A stretch of 27,795 nucleotides of DNA, taken from positions 1-27,795 of the forward strand of contig CAWBHS010000068.1 in NCBI GenBank assembly GCA_963788655.1, given 5' to 3'. Below the pieces are notes generated by a model. It searched no databases and was not told where the DNA came from. It saw nothing but the letters and a program-made list of their open reading frames with translations. Of the stretch, positions 1,912-17,413 are shown one piece after another (the stretch's first letter is position 1; each line of letters starts with the position of its first letter). The DNA is from an uncultured Verrucomicrobiae bacterium. GTDB taxonomy: Bacteria > Verrucomicrobiota > Verrucomicrobiia > Limisphaerales > JAFGQR01. The position numbers were made by a program, and so were the translations under genes.

Positions 1912-3256
1912 GTGAAAGTCGTCTGCCTCCTGGATTCGGTGTCCCGCCAGAATGGAGGCATCTTCGAAGCCGAACGTAAACTGCAAGTCGAGCTGGCCGG
2001 CAGTCAGCAAGTCAACGTTGCGGTGCTGGGTTTGGCGGATGAACATACGCGCGCCGATGCACCTGCCTGGAAGCCGCTTGATGTCTCCACTTTTCCCGTT
2101 GTCGGCCCCAGCTTCTTCGGTTACTCGCCCCAACTCAAGCACGCCCTTTCAAACAGTGAAGCCGACGTTGTCTATAACGCCGGGCTTTGGAAGTATCCTT
2201 CGCTGGCGACCAAGGACTGGGCAAATGCCACGCGAAAGCCATACGTGGTCGCTCCGCACGGAATGCTGGACGCCTGGGCCCTGCAAAACTCCAGGTGGAA
2301 GAAGCAGTTGGCCGGATGGTGCTTTCAGAATGCGCACCTGCGCGGTGCCGCCTGCCTGCGGGCGCTCTGCACTGCGGAAGCTCAATCCATCCGCGCCTAC
2401 GGCCTGAAGAATCCCATTGCCATAATCCCGAATGGGGTCGAGCTGCCAGACCTTGGAAATGCTGAAATACTGAAAACTGAAAAGCTGAAACCGGAGAATG
2501 GCGATGTTCACGCTTCTCAACATTTCAGCGTTTCAGCGTTTCAGCGTTTCAGCGTTTTCTCGAACCGTAAGGCCCTGCTTTATCTTGGCCGCATCCATCC
2601 CAAGAAAGGTCTGGTCAACCTCCTCCGCGCATGGCGTCTGTGTCTCGCCCTCTGTCCTCTGACTTCTGTCCTCTGTCCTCTGATTGGACTCTCGCCATCG
2701 CCGGCTGGGACCAGGGCGGGCACGAAGCGGAACTCAAACGCCTGGCCACGGAACTGGAGATTCCGTGGCGCGACTGCCGCGAAGCGCCTTATACACTCAG
2801 GGGAGAGTTGGCCGCAGGCCGGATGAGGTGGATTTCAGCATTTCAGATTTTCAGCGTTTCAGCGTTTTCTTTTTCGGCCCGCTGTTTGGCGCCGAAAAGC
2901 CGCCGCTTACGCTCCTGCGACGCCTTTATCCTTCCCTCTTTCAGCGAAGGTTTGCCCATGGTGGTGCTCGAAGCCTGGGCCTACGGCAAGCCGGTGCTGA
3001 TGACGCCGGAGTGCAATCTCCCCGAAGGCTTCGCCGCCAACGCCGCGATCCGGATCGAGACGAATCCCGAAAGCATTGCGCGAGGACTTAGTATTTTAGC
3101 CAATTACCGATAACTGATAACCGATCACTCGGAGCGAACGGACGGAAGTTGGTGAGCGAACGCTTCACCTGGCCCAAAATCGCGGCGGAAATGAAGCAAG
3201 TTTACGACTGGGTGCTGGGTGGAGGAGCAAAGCCGGAAAGTGTGGTTGATTGTTGA
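1912..3256 (+). CDS. GT4 glycosyltransferase with several frameshifts and four repeat-derived insertions
   Basis: VAPHGMLDAWAL, IIPNGV, LYLGRIHPKKG, FILPSFSEGLPMVVLEAWAYGKPV, RFTWPKIAAEMKQVYDW; stop at 3254-3256; frame breaks near 2632, 2820-2900 and 3110-3130. Confidence 0.9.
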
Positions 3257-3267
3257 GGGTCTGGATA

Positions 3268-3304
3268 AATGCTGAAAATCTGAAATACTGAAACGCTGAA
3301 ATGC
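3268..3304 (-). repeat. Octamer array in reverse orientation (GCTGAAA)n
   Basis: GCTGAAAA-TCTGAAAT-ACTGAAAC-GCTGAAAT; complementary to the TTTCAGC arrays at 3549-3575. Confidence 0.85.
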
Positions 3305-3371
3305 GGAAAGCAGACGAAACCGCCGGCCTGACTGGCTGATTCCAGTTCCCCTTCAAGATGAGACTTCCATC

Positions 3372-3440: not shown

Positions 3441-3548
3441 AATCCGCTTTCGCATTAGCCCCAACTTGAAAGCAAAATGGAACATGGGTGCTGAAATCCT
3501 GGAACTTGGAAAATCAAGCTGAACAGAGGTCTCCTTCGATCATTCCAG

Positions 3549-3652
3549 TTTTAGCCTTTCAGCGTTTCAGCTTTTTGCTTTGCAGTCCTTTGGTCTTTTG
3601 GTCCGTGGTCCCTTGGGCCTCTTTTCAGCTTTTCAGACCCGTCCTTTGGTCC
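3549..3652 (+). repeat. TTTCAGC and CCTTTGGTC octamer arrays upstream of the second TA pair
   Basis: Same two unit types as 1634-1880. Confidence 0.85.
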
Positions 3653-4375: not shown

Positions 4376-4481
4376 AGGATGGTTGCCGATGAGCCGCAGG
4401 AAATTCAGCCTTCACTCGGCCTGAAGCTCCCGAATACAGATGACGGAGGTTGGAAATTAGAGGACAGTTAAAAAGCTTTAA

Positions 4482-4551
4482 TTGGTCCTCTGTCCCTTTG
4501 GTCCGGTTATCAGCATTTCAGCATTTTAGCGTTTTAGCGTTTCAGCGTTTT
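4482..4551 (+). repeat. TTGGTCC and TTT(C/T)AGC octamer arrays between the TA pair and wcaF
   Basis: TATCAGCA-TTTCAGCA-TTTTAGCG-TTTTAGCG-TTTCAGCG, ending about 8 nt before ATG 4559. Confidence 0.85.
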
Positions 4552-4558
4552 CCGATGT

Positions 4559-5113
4559 ATGGATTTGGCCAATTACACGACGAAGGATTTTGACCGGGGC
4601 GCCCGTCGCTTGAAGGAAGTGCTTTGGACCATCACCAAAGCGCTTTTTTTTATGCCGTCATGGCCGTGGCCGTCGCGTTTGCGTGCGTCCTTACTGCGGC
4701 TGTTTGGCGCCCAGGTTGGCCGCGGGCTCGTCATTCGTTCGCGAGTTAACATCACCTTCCCCTGGCGCTTGTGTGTCGCAGATCATGTGTGGATCGGGGA
4801 AGAGACGGTGATCCTGAGCCTGGCAACCGTCACCATTGAATCGCACGTATGCATTTCGCAGCGCTCATTCCTCTGCACCGGCACGCATAACTTTTACCGA
4901 CATGATTTCGAACTACAAACCAAGCCTATTGCCGTCCGCGCGGAAAGTTGGATTGCCGCCCAGGCATTTATTGGCCCAGGCGTCGAGATCGGCACCGGCA
5001 GCGTAGTGGCTGCGGGCAGTGTGGTGATGGAATCCGTCCCACCGAATTCCTTGGTCCGGGGCAATCCTGCGCAAATCGTCAAAAAAATCGAACGCCCGAA
5101 TTCACCAAAGTGA
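4559..5113 (+). CDS. wcaF: WcaF-like exopolysaccharide acetyltransferase (hexapeptide-repeat family)
   Basis: LLRLFGAQVG, VNITFPWRL, VWIGE, CISQRSFLCTGTH, GNPA motifs. Confidence 0.88.
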   Translation: MDLANYTTKDFDRGARRLKEVLWTITKALFFMPSWPWPSRLRASLLRLFGAQVGRGLVIRSRVNITFPWRLCVADHVWIGEETVILSLATVTIESHVCISQRSFLCTGTHNFYRHDFELQTKPIAVRAESWIAAQAFIGPGVEIGTGSVVAAGSVVMESVPPNSLVRGNPAQIVKKIERPNSPK

Positions 5114-5115
5114 AC

Positions 5116-5160
5116 GGGAGCACGCCCGCCCCGGGCGTCATAAACGGCGCCCCCGCCGTT
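5116..5160 (+). repeat. GGAGCAC-type REP-like element, copy 2
   Basis: GGGAGC-ACGCCCG-CCC-CGGGCGT...AACGGCG-CCCC-CGCCGTT double hairpin directly after the wcaF stop. Confidence 0.65.
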
Positions 5161-5195
5161 GACCCAACGAATTGATCCGCGTTCATCCATGACTG

Positions 5196-5254
5196 AAATT
5201 CGTGCCAATTCGTGAAATTTGTATCTCTCCACGGTTGTTGTTCCGTGCAATCCG
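5196..5254 (+). repeat. ATTCGTG/ATCCGTG-type 9-10-mer tandem repeat forming the intron 5' exon
   Basis: AAATTCGTGCCAATTCGTGAAATTTGT...TTCCGTGCAATCCG; the last 13 nt are identical to 16656-16668. Confidence 0.7.
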
Positions 5255-7232
5255 GAAAGCGCCAAGCAAGCTTGGTGGTTCTTGTTAACTGCAACGTGTT
5301 AACCATGATAAATGGTCGAGAGTCATGTAGCCGACCCTTAAGCGGGTGGGAGCGATCCTGCCCGTTGAAGCTGGGGAAGGCCAATGCGCGAGCCGTAGCG
5401 TTCCGCGAACTCGGTTCGGCCTCGTTACACAAAACTGGGAGTGGCCAGCCTGCCGGATGTGGTGAAGCCCGCATCGGTCGGGAAGATTCGATCCCATGCA
5501 CCGACCGGACTCCCCGGGGTGAGAGGAGACAGCGCGCGCAGAAAGAACCACTGGGAACTTGGGAGGCCCGGTTCGGAGTCCTGGCCTGTAACGCAGGACA
5601 ACCCCTGGCGGGAAGCCATAACCGCTGGTGGGGCCGAATCGCGGCGTCGGATGGGCTCATAGTAGCGTCGATCTGCCGATCAAGTTGGCAGGGAGCCAAG
5701 GAGCCCTGGCCAGAGTCAAGCCGAGTCAGAGGAATCCGGAGCTGATTGGGATGGAGTTCATTCCTACAACAGAAGAAGCGGTGGAGGAACTTTCCTTCCG
5801 GGAAGCGATCCTGCCGCCGAGCCTGCGGGAACTGAGACAGAAGCTGGGCCAGAAAGCCAAACAACAGAAGCGGTTTCGCTTCTACAGTCTCTACGCTTTG
5901 GTGTATCGAACCGACGTGCTGCAAGCGGCTTGGGCCGCGGTGCGGCGCAACGACGGTGCGCCGGGCGTGGACGGAGTGAGCATCGAACAGATCACCACGA
6001 CGCCGGAAAGCGAAGCGGCATTTCTGTCCGAGATCGAACGGAGCCTGAGGGACAAAACCTATCGTGCCCAAGCGGTGCGGCGGGTGTATATCTCGAAGGC
6101 CAACGGCAAGTTGCGGCCGTTGGGCATTCCGACGGTGCGGGACCGGGTGGTGCAAGCGGCGGTGTTGCTGATCCTGGAGCCGATCTTCGAAGCCGACTTT
6201 GAAGACTGCTCCCACGGGTTTCGGCCCGGACGATCGGCGCACGATGCCTTGCGCGCCATCCAACAGCACCTGAAGGAGGGTCAAACGGCGGTGTATGATG
6301 CGGATCTGGCTGGCTACTTCGACAGCATTCCCCACGATAAGCTGATCGCTTGCGTGCGGATGCGCGTGGTGGACGGTTCGGTCCTGGGACTGATCCGACA
6401 ATGGCTCAAGGCGCCGGTGGTGGAACCGCCCCCAGGGGGACAACCACCCACGGTGCGACGCAACGACCGGGGCACCCCCCAAGGTGGAGTGCTTTCGCCT
6501 TTGCTGGCCAATGTCTATTTGCACTGGTTCGACCACCTCTTCCAACGAGGAGATGGACCGGCGCAATGGGCCAAAGCGAAGCTGATCCGTTACGCGGACG
6601 ACTTCGTGGTCATGGCTCGCTACATCAGTCCGAAGTTGCGGGAATGGATCGAGGGCAAACTGGAAGGCTGGCTGGACCTGCAAATCAACCGGGATAAAAC
6701 TCGGATCGTGGATTTGAAGCAATCGGGCCAGAGCCTGGATTTCCTGGGCTACACCTTTCGGTATGACCGCGATCAATACGGTCGGCCGCAGCGTTACTGG
6801 AACCTGGAACCGTCGCGCAAAACGATGGAGCGGGAACGGAAAGCGTTGCGAGGGTTGATCAACCCGCATCAGAGTCATACGCCCATGCCGGAGTTGATTG
6901 GACGGGTGAACCGTCACCTGCGGGGTTGGTCCAACTACTTCAAGTTGGGCTATCCGCGGAAGGCATTTCGTCAGCTCAATCACTTCGTGCGGTATCGGTT
7001 GGGACGGCATCTGCAACGTCGCAGCCAACGGGGTTGGCGAGCCCGTGAGGGCGTCAGCCTGTATGCTCACTTGGACCATCTGGGACTGGTTGCGTTGTGA
7101 ATGCTTTGTGGAAGAGCCGACACTGGCGAGAGCCGGATGGGGGAAATCTCCATGTCCGGTTCGACGAGGGAGAGGGAAGCGGCGGTCATTGGTTTTCGGG
7201 CCTTTCATTCCGTGCTTTCCTCTCTACTCTAC
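5255..7232 (+). mobile_element. Group II intron (non-IIC, no endonuclease domain; resembles bacterial class E/F, class not determinable here); 5' boundary approximate (5255-5257)
   Basis: Domain V GAGCCGGATGGGGGAAATCTCCATGTCCGGTTC (7130-7162) with AGC triad and GAAA loop; domain VI ending CTCTACTCTAC (7232); domain I closing stem CCAAG (5262-5266) with CTTGG (5558-5562); RT ORF inside. Confidence 0.92.
5751..7100 (+). CDS. ltrA: Group II intron reverse transcriptase/maturase
   Basis: [62 protein letters not shown] and thumb GWSNYF motifs; no HNH domain; uninterrupted 449 aa from ATG 5751. Confidence 0.95.
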
Positions 7233-7449
7233 TGGCGAATACATCTCCAGCGATTGTGAATCCGCCGCCGATGTAGAGGTTGCCGGAACTGTCCGTCACC
7301 GCTGCTCGAACGCGACCGTTCACGCCTGGGAAGCCTCCCATGCTCATCCAGTTGTCATTACTGTAGGTTCCAGCGTGGATGTTGGCGCTGGACGCGCCGA
7401 TCAGAAGCATGGCGAGGACGCCGAGGGCATGATGGCTGGTTGTTCTCAT
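7233..7449 (-). pseudogene. N-terminal fragment of a secreted beta-propeller repeat protein, cut at the intron 3' end
   Basis: MRTTSHHALGVLAMLLIG...NWMSMGGFPGVNG...GNLYIGGGFTIAGDVFA is a close paralog of the N-terminus of 8121-10402; similarity stops at 7233. Confidence 0.85.
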
Positions 7450-7481
7450 GGCATGGTTACTGTAGTTGAAGGATTCCGCCG

Positions 7482-7980
7482 TTAGTCATTGTCCGTGATG
7501 GTGAGCGTGGCTTGGTGGTTGGGCGGAGCCGCAGTCCCGTGGCTGGCGACCGTCACGATCACGCTCTCGCTGGCGCCTTCATCGAGCGTGTCGGAGATGG
7601 GCGTGATGGTCAGGTTAACGGCAGCGACGCCGGCAGGCATCGTAACCCTGCCGTTGGGGTTCAGGCCGCTCACGGTGTAATCGCCGCTAAACGTGGCGTT
7701 CCCGGCGAAATTCAGCAGGACCTCGATCTGTTGATCGGTGTTGTCGCGAGAGAGGGTGAGGGTGGCGGTTTGCAGGCCAGACTCGTTGACGGTCGTCGGT
7801 GCGACGGCGATGGAGACGACGGGGGCGTGGGTGACGGAGAAGCTGGAGAACGTTACTTTCGCAATGACACTTGGCTGCGGAGGATCATCGTCTCTCCCAG
7901 TCCAGTCCGGGTAGTAACATCCAGCCTTGAAGTAAAGGTCGTCACCGAGCCACGCAGCGTTCATGGGCAAGGTCTGGAAA
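7482..7980 (-). pseudogene. Orphan C-terminal fragment: last PL7 lyase motif plus a Calx-beta-like domain
   Basis: LYFKAGCYYP...AKVTFSSFSVTH matches the end of the giant protein, followed by E-S-G...ATLTLSR...GNAT..DY...D.LDEG.SE.V...ATLTITDND (Calx-beta pattern); the SELR and QIH motifs are absent. Confidence 0.7.
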
Positions 7981-8120
7981 TGACAGGCACACCCGGTGCG
8001 CAACCGCAAAGGTTAAGCGCAGAGATTCCGAGAACGCAGAGATTGCTGCGACCGCCGAATAACGAGGCGAGCAGTTTCATGGGGATCAGCGACGGCTGCG
8101 GGCGTTTCGGTTCATTGCGT

Positions 8121-10402
8121 TCACGGCAGCTCCAGCGTGCGGTAAAAGGCCGGGCCGGGCGGGGCGTTGGTGTCGGTGAAAGTGAACGAGCCGTCCCGCG
8201 CGGGAGAAAGGGGGCTGGTGGTGAGAGTGGTCCAGGTGATCGGCGGGGCGAGGTTCGTGGCGCGCTGCACGTCGTATTGGTAGCCGGTCACGCCGGAGAA
8301 CTGGATCGAGGCCGTGGAGTTGGTTACCGCCACCGACTTGATGATGCTGCCAATGCGGGCCTTGGCCAGAGAGTATGACACTTTGCCCCCAGCGGTGGTG
8401 AACGCGCCGCCCACATATAGATCAGGACCCATGACTGCCAAGTCCCACACAGAGCCGCCAACCCCTGAACCGAGTGCGCTCCAACTATTCCCGTTCCACT
8501 TTGGCGATTCCATTTACTGGGGCTCCCACCCGCTGTCGTGAACGCGCCTCCAGCATACAGGTCGCTGCACGACACCGTGAGCGCAGTAACATCGCCATAC
8601 GTGGGCATCCCCGAACCGAGTGCACTCCAACTGCTCCCGTTCCATTTGGCGATGTTACTGGCCGCGATGACACCTGCCGTCGTGAAATCCACCCCCCGCA
8701 TACAGGTCGCTGCCCAGCACCGCCAGCACATGCACAGAGGGCCAATCTCCACCCATCCCCGAAGCGAGCGCGCTCCAACTGCTCCCGTTCCATTTGGCGA
8801 TGCAATCGGCTGTGCTGCCGCCCGCCGTCGTGAACCGGCCGCCCGCGTATAGGTCGCTCCCCGCCACCACCAAGGCATACACGGTGCCGTTCATCCCCGA
8901 GCCCAGTGCGCTCCAAGTGTTTCCGTCCCACCGAGCAATGTTATTGGCCGACACCCCGCCCGCTGTGGTGAAATCTCCGCCCACGTAGAGATTGCTGCCG
9001 GACACCGCCAGCGCAGTCACATAATTCACCACATTCCCGTTCACCCCTGAGCCCAGCGCGCTCCAACTGCTCCCGTTCCATTTGGCGATCCGATTGGCCG
9101 ACACTCCGCCTGCCACTGGTGAAATCTCCCCCCGCATAGAGGTCGCGGCCGGACACCGCCAGCGCTCGAATATGCTCATCCATACCTGATCCCACCGTGC
9201 TCCAAATGCTCCCGTTCCATTTGGCAACGCGATTGACTGACACCCCACCCGCCGCGTTAAGGTATCCCCCCACATACAGGTCGCTGCCGGACACCGCCAA
9301 CGCAGCCAGTGGACCGTCTGGCCCTGAGTACAACGCGATCTCACTCCAACCGTTTTCGTTCCATTTGGTGATCCCAAAATCGCCACCGACGTACAGGTCG
9401 CTCGCCGAAACCGCCAGCGCAGACACCCAGTAGTCCTCGATATAGGGACCCACCGTGCTCCAACTGCTGCCGTTCCATTTGCCGATCCGACCGATCGAAT
9501 CAGTACCCATACTGGAACTGGAACACCACATATAGATCGTTGCCCGCAACCGTCAGTGCAAACACGTAGCCGGGCGTGTCCGTTCCCGAACCGACTGCGC
9601 TCCAACTCGACCCATTCCATCGGGCAATATACGAGGCCGGCACGCCGCCCGCCGCAGTGAAATAGCCCCCCGCATACAGGTCACTGCCCAGCACGGCCAG
9701 CGAATACACACGGGCGTTCACCCCCGATCCCAAGGCGCTCCAACTGGACCCGTTCCATTTGGCGATGTAATTGACCGACACCTCACCCGCGTTCGTGAAG
9801 TCGCCCGCCGCATACAGATCACTGCCCGACACTTCCAGTGCAAGCACACTACGGTTCATCCCCGCACCAACTGCGCTCCAATTAGTCCCATTCCATCTGG
9901 CGACGTTTGTGGCCGACACTCTGCCCGCTCTGGTGAAAAGTCCCCCCACATACAGGTCGCCACCTGATACCGCCATAGTCGTGACCGTGCCGCCCACCCC
10001 CGAACCTAGCGCGCTCCAATTGGTCCCGTTCCATCTGGCAATGTTTGTGGCCGCTACTTCGCCCGCCGTAGTGAAAAGGCCGCTCGCATACAGGTCGGTG
10101 CCCGACACTGCCAGGTCCCACACCATGCCGTCGATCCCCGATCCCAGCGCACTCCACTTGGTCCCGTCCCACCTGGCGATATTTGTGGCGAACATCTCTC
10201 CCGCTATCGTGAACGCGCCGCCGACGTAGAGGTTGCCCAAGCCGTCCACCACTACCGCGTCAACCTCGCCGTCCACGCCGTAAATGCCACCCATGCTGGT
10301 CCAGTTGTGATCACTGAAGGTCCCGGCGGAGAGGTTGGCGGCGTACGCGCCAACCAGAAGCACGGCGACGACGGCAAGGGCATGACGATTGGTTCTGCCC
10401 AT
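8121..10402 (-). CDS. Secreted beta-propeller repeat protein (~46 aa GGxFTTAGG..ANNIA(K/R)W(N/D)GxxWSALGSG repeats) with a C-terminal FYR-type domain; several frameshifts
   Basis: Signal peptide MGRTNRHALAVVAVLLVGAYAANLSA; more than 10 repeats distributed across ORFs 9500-10417, 8941-9549, 8655-9620, 8324-8878 and 8121-8513. Confidence 0.82.
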
Positions 10403-10409
10403 ATCGAAA

Positions 10410-16004
<5,595 letters not shown>

Positions 16005-16173: not shown

Positions 16174-16404
16174 TTTGCCACCGGGCAAAACAACCTGGCG
16201 ATGAACCGCACTGTGGCGCAGATCGCCCGGCATTACATTCAGGGCAACACGATTCCCGAGCCGATGCTGAACCGCGTCGAGGCGGGCATCCGGGCGTTCG
16301 ATCCGTGCCTGAGTTGCTCGACGCACGCCGACGGCCGTCTGGCACTCGAAGTAGCGTTGGTCGCGGCGGATGGATCGGTGCTGGACCAAAAGGGGCGCGG
16401 GTGA
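16174..16404 (+). pseudogene. 3' remnant of a group 3 [NiFe]-hydrogenase large subunit (HoxH-like)
   Basis: ATGQNNLAMN...LNRVEAGIRAFDPCLSCSTH (L2 motif) plus the cleavable C-terminal tail; the upstream part of the gene, including the L1 motif, is absent. Confidence 0.85.
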
Positions 16405-16449
16405 AAACTTCGGATTCAACCGAGCGGCTGACGCAAGGATCCAATCCCT

Positions 16450-16621
16450 GGTAGGGCGAGACTCCGTCGAGCCCTGATTTCCCCTGGGCGCGTTCAGTAG
16501 CAAGAATCCGGTCAAAGGAAAATCTTGTGATGTTCGAACACTATGGTCTTCCCGGCGTTGCCGCTTTCGGGAGTTCGGAAGCGCCTCGGAAAGTCAGGGC
16601 TCGACGGAGTCTCGCCCTACC
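16450..16621. repeat. GTAG-type REP doublet (REPIN-like), perfect 28-bp inverted repeat
   Basis: GGTAGGGCGAGACTCCGTCGAGCCCTGA (16450-16477) is the exact reverse complement of 16594-16621. Confidence 0.9.
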
Positions 16622-16643
16622 TGGCCGGCACGTGGGACTGAAG

Positions 16644-16671
16644 AATCCGTGAAGATCCGTGCAATCCGCGG
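16644..16671 (+). repeat. ATCCGTG-type tandem repeat
   Basis: AATCCGTGAAG-ATCCGTGCA-ATCCGCGG. Confidence 0.7.
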
Positions 16672-16704
16672 TCAATCCACTGCGGGCCATACATTAAACC
16701 TTCG

Positions 16705-17153
16705 ATGCCCAACACCCTGATCATCGGTTACGGCAATGAGATTCGCGGCGACGACGCGGTCGGGCCACGGATTGCGGCGTTGGTGAACGATTGGAAGCTT
16801 CCCGCGGTAACGGCGTTGGCTGTCCATCAACTGCCCCCGGAACTGGCCGAACCGATCGCTGCGGCGCAACAGGTGGTTTTTGTCGATGCCAGCGCTGATC
16901 CGAACGTGCGGGAGGTCCAGACGCGACCACTTGAACCGGCAACCCAGCGCAGTGGCGGGACGGACACGTGAGCCGTCCTGGCGATTTGCTGGCGCTGGCG
17001 CAAGCCGTCTATGGGCATTGTCCGCCGGCCTGGCTGATCACGGTGCCCGGCGAACGCTTTGAATTCGGCGAATCGCTGTCACCGCGAGCGGAACATGGGA
17101 TGAGGGAGGCATTGGTCCTCTTGCGGAGCTACTGCGGGAAGTTGGAACCGTAA
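16705..17153 (+). CDS. Hydrogenase maturation protease (frameshift near 16965)
   Basis: LIIGYGNEIRGDDAVG, HQLPPELAE, VVFVDA, then FEFGESLS in the next frame. Confidence 0.88.
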
Positions 17154-17172: not shown

Positions 17173-17413
17173 CGTGCTGCCGGCATCTTGCCGGCAGTTT
17201 GGAACAGAGCGTTCGATAAATGACCAATGACCACTGTCCAATGACCAGCGAATGACCACGACCCAATCCCCAACTCCCAACCGACGAGCGGTGGACGCTC
17301 CCAATGCGCCTTGGTGCTTGGAATTTGGACCTTCTCTGGAGCTTGGTCCTTGGCCATTGGTCATTCCTGCCCGCTGTTCCATTCGGTTCTGCCGGCGAGA
17401 CGCCAGCAGCACG
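17173..17413. repeat. Nested palindrome: REP pair enclosing a heptamer-repeat hairpin
   Basis: Outer arms 17173-17197 and 17389-17413 match 22/25; inner (AATGACC)n arm 17219-17241 and 17343-17365 match 19/23. Confidence 0.85.

Follow-up and report, generated by a model that had tools for sequence, protein, structure and literature searches.

Mobile group II introns of the RmInt1 kind, which are IIB-like and occur in Sinorhizobium, encode a protein with reverse transcriptase (RT) and maturase domains and without DNA-binding and endonuclease (D/En) domains, at least in the parts of the literature drawn on here. They home through the pairing of exon-binding sites (EBS) in the intron with intron-binding sites (IBS) in the target, reach a high copy number and prefer a site in a repeated genomic element; in the case of RmInt1, this site reportedly lies in ISRm2011-2. 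Here we describe a family of group II introns that shares all of these properties, starting from a copy found in an uncultured Verrucomicrobiae bacterium (contig CAWBHS010000068.1 of assembly GCA_963788655.1, positions 1 to 27,795, a stretch of DNA hereafter called the window). The family differs from RmInt1 in that its target is an array of 9-10 nt tandem units rather than an insertion sequence, its IBS2 comprises 3-4 nt and its 5' end reads GAAAGCG. The analysis points, with high probability, to a multi-copy Verrucomicrobiota family that is targeted by sequence to the terminal unit of tandem arrays, the window copy being full-length and probably active.

IIC introns offer another point of comparison. 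Like the present family, they have an endonuclease-less protein, occupy many intergenic sites per genome and recognise a short sequence, and the GsI-IIC RT is the nearest solved relative of the protein described here. They insert after intrinsic terminators or attC sites, whereas the present family recognises its target by sequence, through an EBS1 of at least 5 pairs, an EBS2 of 3-4 pairs and a YGG motif. Furthermore, IIC introns are not known to have an EBS2, and they have an IBS1 of only 3-4 nt and the triad CGC in domain V, whereas the window intron has the triad AGC, an EBS2 that covaries with its target and an IBS1 of 5 pairs, some of which covary.

The passages of PMC4424553 used here list three target specificities for bacterial group II introns, namely homing sites, terminators and attC sites. 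The same passages describe C.te.I1 of Clostridium tetani and the fungal IIB1 rRNA introns as splicing away from GUGYG. The 5' boundary of the window intron likewise departs from this motif, but those introns keep GUGYG and splice 1-33 nt upstream of it, whereas in the window intron the motif itself is GAAAGCG. As to the arrays, the TAACTGA heptamers of Beggiatoaceae are abundant intergenic short direct repeats according to the portions consulted of PMC4679880 and PMC4853749. They resemble the arrays of the window in being tandem, of short period, intergenic and numerous in each genome. Yet, phylum, unit and period (8-10 nt here) differ, and those portions make no link with group II introns.

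Results

The ends of the intron

A single scan of genome contigs with the intron protein provided 79 loci (cited below by their L numbers) out of 155 confirmed relatives. They belong mostly to Verrucomicrobiota and come mostly from metagenome assemblies, several genomes being multi-copy. The limits of the intron were mapped by BLASTN of window positions 5140-5760 and 7050-7330 against the 79 loci. The 5' alignments began at window positions 5236-5254 (27 loci) and the 3' alignments stopped at 7232-7237 (26 hits in 25 loci). In 26 related copies, homology was confined to the equivalent of 5255-7232, conservation setting in at G GAAAGCGCC. The 3' end, CUCUAC at 7232, has the final AY of group II introns and is identical across 25 related loci.

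FR_27 copies that are identical inside the intron diverge in the nine bases that precede it (GTGCC, GCGCC, GTGGA, GCACC, GCAGC). At about 3050-6700 of L007, a locus from a complete chromosome, a segment is repeated three times (period about 445 nt); copy 1 holds the intron and copies 2 and 3 are empty. Over 50-100 nt, these two intron-less paralogous sites match the flanks on either side of the occupied site at 98-100% identity, and they join them precisely, as ...GAGCTCTCTG/CGGTTGATT (...CTCTCTG/CGGTTG, the slash marking the insertion point). Because of these empty sites and of the divergence of flanks among copies, we take the mobile unit to extend from GAAAGCG to CUCUAC, i.e. from 5255 to 7232 on the plus strand, the same limits, to the nucleotide, as in an initial annotation made from the window alone. 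Judged from its sequence, this segment is a full-length mobile group II intron of 1978 nt. It is probably active, splicing and mobility being predicted.

The window intron does not start with GUGYG, and GAAAGCG is its predicted 5' splice sequence. Among its relatives, L015 starts with GAGCG, and L018 and L038 start with GUGCG (62-67% protein identity). More distant relatives, including L042-48, also start with GUGCG. L042-L048 are seven copies in a Thermodesulfobacteriota genome (56% protein identity; canonical GUGCG), all inserted after the exon GTGAATGCYT, which resembles GTGCAATCCG of the window; a GC-rich hairpin precedes five of the seven, an arrangement reminiscent of IIC introns.

Near-identical copies at different sites within genomes argue for recent mobility. 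Damaged copies were also encountered: some 3 kb of foreign DNA split the protein gene of L029, domain I of L031 is broken after about 40 nt, L010 misses the first 120 nt or so of the intron, and L052 consists of two tandem degenerate copies, one of which is preceded by T rather than G.

Pairing with the 5' exon

The initial annotation had drawn attention to CCGGAT at 5453-5458, in a small stem-loop of domain I, as complementary to ATCCGG at 5250-5255 and as a candidate EBS1. A 6-nt complement within a 300-nt domain is weak evidence alone, about 0.07 being expected by chance. The positions were confirmed, and the pairing is now backed by covariation over 26 copies. Structure modelling also agrees with the proposed stem-loop: Rfam RF02005 puts CCGGAU in a hairpin loop, and RNAalifold predicts a hairpin with stems 5443-5445/5467-5469 and 5448-5450/5461-5463 and a 10-nt loop. 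One pair of these stems is CG in 13 copies and UA in 10.

Across the 26 copies, 85% of the EBS1/IBS1 cells were paired, as compared with 76% after shuffling and 32-52% in slid controls. The covariation score amounted to 0.393 versus 0.212 in shuffled data, and the observed value was reached by none of 500 shuffles. The changes in exon and loop are compensatory in copies from different loci: ATCCGG faces CCGGAU in the window, FR_27 and L070; ATCTGG faces CCAGAU in L012, L030 and L067; ATTCGG faces CCGAAU in L011, L014 and L029; TTTAGG faces CCUAAA in L019; TTTATGG faces CCGUAAA in L002; and TCTCTGG faces UCAGAGA in L006-9. Because it covaries with the last five exon bases, ATCCG, we identify CGGAU (5454-5458) as EBS1. 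The preceding base, C5453, faces the intron's own G1 and may correspond to the delta position of IIB introns.

A second, shorter pairing, absent from the initial annotation, was found upstream. The score for EBS2/IBS2 was 0.377 versus 0.155 in shuffled data (attained by 0 of 500 shuffles; 26 copies). The centre pair was CG in 13 copies, UA in 6, AU in 4 and UG in 3, and was unpaired in none. The outer bases of IBS2 hardly vary, exon position -10 being G in 23 and position -8 in 24 of the 26 copies; position -9 covaries with the middle base of the internal loop GUUAC[A/G/U]C. Thus, the window has GUG/CAC, FR_27 GCG/CGC and OY760937 GAG/CUC. The signal in the 5' exon is therefore G-N-G, followed by two free bases and then by five bases, and the intron displays both the EBS1-IBS1 and the EBS2-IBS2 pairings of group II introns.

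Tandem arrays as the probable target

The 5' flanks can be read as two to four units of 9-10 nt, as exemplified by three units of GCGCCATCC in L020 and three of CGTNNATCTG in L012. The IBS1 5-mer was found again, at 4 or 5 of its 5 bases and 8-11 nt upstream, in 23 of the 26 copies, versus a background of 9.2% at 15,754 positions of the same loci. With only the first-listed copy of each genome, this recurrence was observed in 15 of 15 genomes (binomial 3e-16). By a stricter measure, the periodicity of the 28-nt flank, 12 of the 25 copies were above the 95th percentile of the background and 8 were above the 99th. The upstream recurrence of IBS1 in 23 of 26 copies therefore indicates that the intron usually targets the final unit of an array of 9-10 nt tandem repeats.

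Within the arrays, the intron is located where the bases after the unit read YGG. When the unit is GYGNNATCC, each unit contains IBS2 and IBS1, and the inner junctions then read YGC or YGT. In the window, the unit TTCCG (5241-5245), 9 nt upstream, agrees with ATCCG at 4 of 5 bases.

The 5' exons of the other copies might have been unrelated, a case that the initial annotation had envisaged. They turned out to be short tandem units whose last bases are complementary to the EBS1 of the same copy, and the proposal that the intron homes into a short tandem-repeat family is supported. The abundance ascribed to this family is not shown for the intron's unit in the window, where it is present at two places only. 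The common 8-mer arrays of the window (TTTCAGCG and others) have units that are unrelated to the intron target.

The 3' exon

Among the 35 junction rows that comprise 3 nt or more, 30 have a 3' exon opening with YGG, and 23 of these 30 carry T at +4, CGGT being the commonest 3' exon. The rule holds across differing EBS1 sequences and extends to relatives with as little as 40% protein identity (L078). A search of the intron copies for an RNA base-pairing partner of YGG found none. Immediately 5' of EBS1 there is a C or a U, unable to pair with Y; one position further 5', most copies have G and L002 has U; and ACCA/ACCG near 5547 is in a predicted helix and shows no covariation. We infer that YGG(T) is recognised by the protein.

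The 3' exons of L018 (5604-5619) and L069 (5469-5484) are T-loop-like (CGGTTCGAATCC; CGGTTCGAATCCG, CGGTTCGAGTCCG). ARAGORN detected no tRNA gene in 20 exon joins, including that of L069 and excluding that of L018, and tRNA was rejected as a target.

Empty sites

The window contains TCCGTGCAATCCG at two places only, 5242-5254 and 16656-16668, while about 8e-4 exact 13-mer repeats would be expected by chance in 27.8 kb. Removal of 5255-7232 leaves it followed by TGG (...GCAATCCG/TGGCG), versus CGG at 16669-16671 in the second occurrence. The 13-nt match of the joined exon had been noted in the initial annotation, along with a possible empty site at 16656. The match is exact, and the site fits every determinant defined above. 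It is unoccupied, stands 9.4 kb beyond the intron and is the sole match in 27.8 kb, on both strands and with wobble allowed, to IBS2 followed by 2-3 nt, IBS1 and YGG.

Empty sites were also searched with a wobble-aware pattern made from each copy's own EBS1 and EBS2 plus YGG. The flanks of 25 loci contained 16 unoccupied sites, versus 9.25 expected from shuffles. Arrays with YGG after them account for ten of the 16 (two in L007 and one each in L001, L014, L019, L021, L037, L050, L067 and the window); the remaining six have the look of chance hits in coding-like DNA.

RNA domains and encoded protein

The non-coding RNA comprises about 630 nt and matches Rfam RF02005 (group-II-D1D4-6) at 5293-5529 with 59.8 bits, for a gathering score of 49 (laxer filters). 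RNAalifold applied to the 26 copies predicted 85 pairs, of which 34 have compensatory changes, in agreement with a domain I-IV fold. Domains V and VI are intact, RF00029 scoring 47.2 bits over 7128-7232 (gathering score 40; full model covered), and A7226 is the candidate branch point.

The intron encodes, in domain IV, an intact protein with the RT and maturase (X) domains of group II introns (RVT_1, 1.2e-32, residues 114-336; GIIM, 1.3e-13, residues 363-429) and the motif YADD. It terminates 20 residues past the maturase domain, and because of this it has no DNA-binding or endonuclease part. Its best relatives of solved structure are the GsI-IIC RT (199 bits), 7uim (175), LtrA (160) and the T.el-type (151). 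With its lack of D/En and its domain I, in which EBS2 occupies an internal and EBS1 a terminal loop, the intron conforms to the homing-type, endonuclease-less (En-less), IIB-like introns (classes D, E, F and unclassified). We describe the RNA as IIB-like and the RT/maturase as endonuclease-less, a description that stops short of a named class among A-F.

Table 1 Features of the intron, its exons and the empty site in the window
Feature	Position	Strand	Basis
IBS2, GTG (exon -10 to -8)	5245..5247	+	Covariation with EBS2 over 26 copies
IBS1, ATCCG (final five bases of the 5' exon)	5250..5254	+	Covariation with EBS1
Non-canonical 5' end, GAAAGCG replacing GUGYG	5255..5261	+	Invariant in 26/26 aligned copies
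Domain I	5262..5562	+	RNAalifold closing helix CCAAG 5262-5266/CUUGG 5558-5562; next helices covary
EBS2, CAC (in internal loop GUUACAC)	5428..5430	+	Covariation
EBS1 hairpin; loop 5451-5460 (UGCCGGAUGU), EBS1 CGGAU 5454-5458, C5453 the base 5' of EBS1	5443..5469	+	Rfam, covariation, RNAalifold
Intron-encoded protein, 449 aa	5751..7100	+	Pfam, translation
Domain V	7130..7162	+	Rfam RF00029
Domain VI and 3' end ...CUCUAC	7166..7232	+	Rfam alignment reaches the last model position at 7232
3' exon: first 72 codons (signal peptide and first blade) of a beta-propeller repeat protein, cut at the intron	7233..7449	-	75% identity to 10186-10402
Short tandem array holding the empty site (units ...AATCCG, TGAAGATCCG, TGCAATCCG, CGGTCAATCC)	16639..16680	+	Tandem Repeats Finder: period 10, 2.2 copies, 16639-16661
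Unoccupied cognate homing site, GTG CA ATCCG/CGGT (GTGCAATCCG/CGGT; GTGCAATCCGCGG)	16659..16672	+	Insertion point 16668/16669

The 3' neighbour of the window copy

The 5' exon of the window copy is cognate; the 3' exon is an imperfect site in a truncated gene and not repeat DNA. Its homology with 10186-10402 begins exactly at 7233, and its first bases, TGG, fit the YGG rule. Nothing continues the beta-propeller gene to the left of 5254, where there is a spacer after the open reading frame (ORF) of a hexapeptide transferase. The paralogue reads ...GCGATATTTG/TGGCGAAC (...GCGATATTTG/TGGC) at the matching point. This is a plausible ectopic target as far as pairing can be predicted, ATTTG pairing with CGGAU via two G.U and TGG fitting YGG. 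As the gene is cut exactly at 7233, the arrangement must result from recombination of two copies, from ectopic insertion plus deletion, or from chimeric assembly. No orthologous empty site was available for the window copy, its flanks (4400-5254 and 7233-8700) having no match in the 79 loci. We think that the simplest account of the 3' side is recombination between a copy in a repeat site and an ectopic copy in a beta-propeller gene. The truncation suggests that the repeats may act as rearrangement hubs, as the initial annotation had put forward.

A beta-propeller gene at 8384-10417 (minus strand) has 138-nt repeats and reads as three overlapping ORFs (9500-10417, 8655-9620 and 8324-8878); it may be frameshifted. 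Each 138-nt repeat carries ...GGCGATGTTTG/TGGC, which is near the intron's target rule.

Gene context was assessed by Pfam on 141 ORFs flanking 16 copies, a plain listing of ORFs being too noisy in GC-rich DNA. No Pfam-matched domain was interrupted among them, and the insertion sites were 8-300 nt from Pfam-supported genes. In L009 and L012, and probably also in L006 and L014, the intron runs in the direction of both neighbouring genes; in L003, L022 and L030 it is oppositely oriented.

Other repeats in the window

Dense arrays of 8-nt units (TTTCAGCG/TTTCAGTG, GTCCYTTG) are present in both orientations at 1638-1874, 2456-2557, 2832-2867, 3267-3309, 3548-3636 and 4483-4550, within a polysaccharide-synthesis gene cluster. 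They are often composite, with GTCCYTTG units followed by TTTCAGYR units. A family-4 glycosyltransferase (GT) gene (1912-3113) seems to be in two frames, with the GT4 N-terminal domain in ORF 1912-2826 and the GT1 C-terminal domain in ORF 2631-3113. The array at 2456-2557 sits between these two domains and could be a phase-variable tract or an insertion.

Near the empty site, a 37-nt inverted repeat with 92% complementarity (16447-16483 and 16588-16624, enclosing 104 nt) looks MITE-like and stands 35 nt upstream of the array. Promoter-like sites were found neither at 16380-16780 nor at 5050-5300. A reading of ORF 16705-16971 as a hydrogenase maturation protease has no Pfam support and is not claimed here. 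Also present are an (AG)15.5 dinucleotide run (15941-15971) and AATGACC heptamer repeats (17219-17365); the latter make up a 55-nt inverted repeat located immediately before the nucleotidyl transferase ORF at 17311 and overlapping its start.

Alternative explanations

We considered a start of the intron at GTGCA (5245), a sequence that resembles GUGYG and is included in several BLAST alignments extending back to 5242. In that case, ATCCGG/CCGGAU would be an internal helix of domain I and the 13-mer at 16656 a stray 5' tip. Yet, the nine bases ahead of GAAAGCG differ among FR_27 copies that are otherwise identical, and the L007 empty sites retain those bases without anything from GAAAGCG to CUCUAC. 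These two findings rule out GTGCA as the start, and we give this account practically no credence. Another possibility was that the intron is targeted in the manner of IIC introns, by a DNA structure (a terminator or an attC-like stem-loop) and with little sequence specificity. The endonuclease-less protein and its kinship with the GsI-IIC RT would be in line with this, as would the position of the distant relatives L042-45 and L047, 10 nt after GC-rich hairpins. However, a scan for terminator-like sites gave two hits, one inside the intron (5260-5277) and one on the minus strand (5132-5117), and none on the strand of the intron within the 5' exon. Furthermore, the thirteen 50-nt flanks that were folded did not surpass shuffled sequences in stability (z from -1.97 to +1.36; -0.1 to -7.4 kcal/mol), and EBS1, with at least 5 pairs, and EBS2 both covary. 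Targeting by structure is thus very improbable. The analogy with IIC introns made in the initial annotation holds for the outcome, i.e. many intergenic sites, and fails for the mechanism, which relies on EBS1, a short EBS2 and YGG and involves no stem-loop.

The arrays might also be a product of the intron, which would make or expand the units by slippage or by aberrant cycles of insertion and loss, without any pre-existing host repeat. Each 9-10 nt unit indeed corresponds to the span from IBS2 through the spacer to IBS1, so that every unit is a near-target, and arrays adjoin 23 of the 26 copies. Yet, intron-free arrays of like form are found at 16639-16680 of the window and in L001, L014, L019, L021, L037, L050 and L067, and the window is rich in intron-free 8-mer arrays of unrelated units. 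That arrays of the fitting unit exist free of the intron speaks for their having preceded it. To our knowledge, duplication of 5' exon sequence by insertion of a group II intron is not known, which also weighs against this explanation, and we consider it unlikely. A chimeric contig has a better claim, though we still hold it to be the less probable case: two loci would have been joined through a collapsed multi-copy intron, and the junction at 7233 would not be biological. The flanks lack contiguity, the gene breaks off right where the intron ends, without any continuation left of 5254, and the relatives are multi-copy and mostly from metagenome assemblies. On the other side, the paralogue site ...GCGATATTTG/TGGC is plausible as an ectopic target. 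Real recombination of two copies would give the same pattern, and nothing speaks directly against a chimera.

Several observations weigh against targeting by sequence to the terminal unit of an array, or limit how far it extends. The 5' flank of the window copy is itself weakly repetitive (periodicity 0.29, background quantile 0.04), its upstream unit agreeing at 4 of 5 bases, and three of the 26 copies (L008, L067, L069) have no upstream unit at 4 or more of 5 bases. Some copies have a mismatched IBS1 (C.A in L001 and L050). Flanks are paralogous in L020, L021 and L028 and in L007, so that the insertions are not all independent, and the excess of unoccupied sites over shuffles (16 versus 9.25) is modest. 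A Pfam-supported ORF, as listed, reaches the junction in L014, L020 and L022, where insertion in the first codons is possible.

Discussion

The observations are consistent with a mechanism in which the excised RNA-protein particle would select DNA sites by three elements. EBS1 (CGGAU) would pair with the final 5 bases of the exon, the short EBS2 (CAC) would pair with exon positions -10 to -8, and the 3' exon would have to begin with YGG(T), presumably read by the protein. From genome to genome, EBS1 and EBS2 vary along with the unit of the local array. As the protein has no endonuclease, priming would be expected to take place at replication forks, by extension from other such introns. The available passages of PMC4424553 indeed describe replication-fork priming for En-less introns.

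In the literature searched, no paper dealt with tandem arrays as homing sites of group II introns or with the present family of Verrucomicrobial introns, and PMC3552965 contains no mention of Verrucomicrobia or of target sites. On balance, we are inclined to regard the introns as an undescribed lineage, in which the homing site would be the terminal unit of an array, a fourth kind of target, EBS1 and EBS2 would track the array unit, and splicing would proceed from the non-GUGYG sequence GAAAGCG.

If this is correct, a lineage specialised in tandem arrays would represent a new route by which a retroelement reaches many harmless sites, with a minimal target of about 11 specified bases. It would also provide a natural series of compensatory changes in EBS1/IBS1 and EBS2/IBS2 within one set of copies, and an unusual 5' splice sequence for catalytic study. 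Multi-copy introns of this type can truncate genes or mislead assemblies. For these Verrucomicrobia, the finding bears on the nature of their abundant arrays of 8-10 nt.

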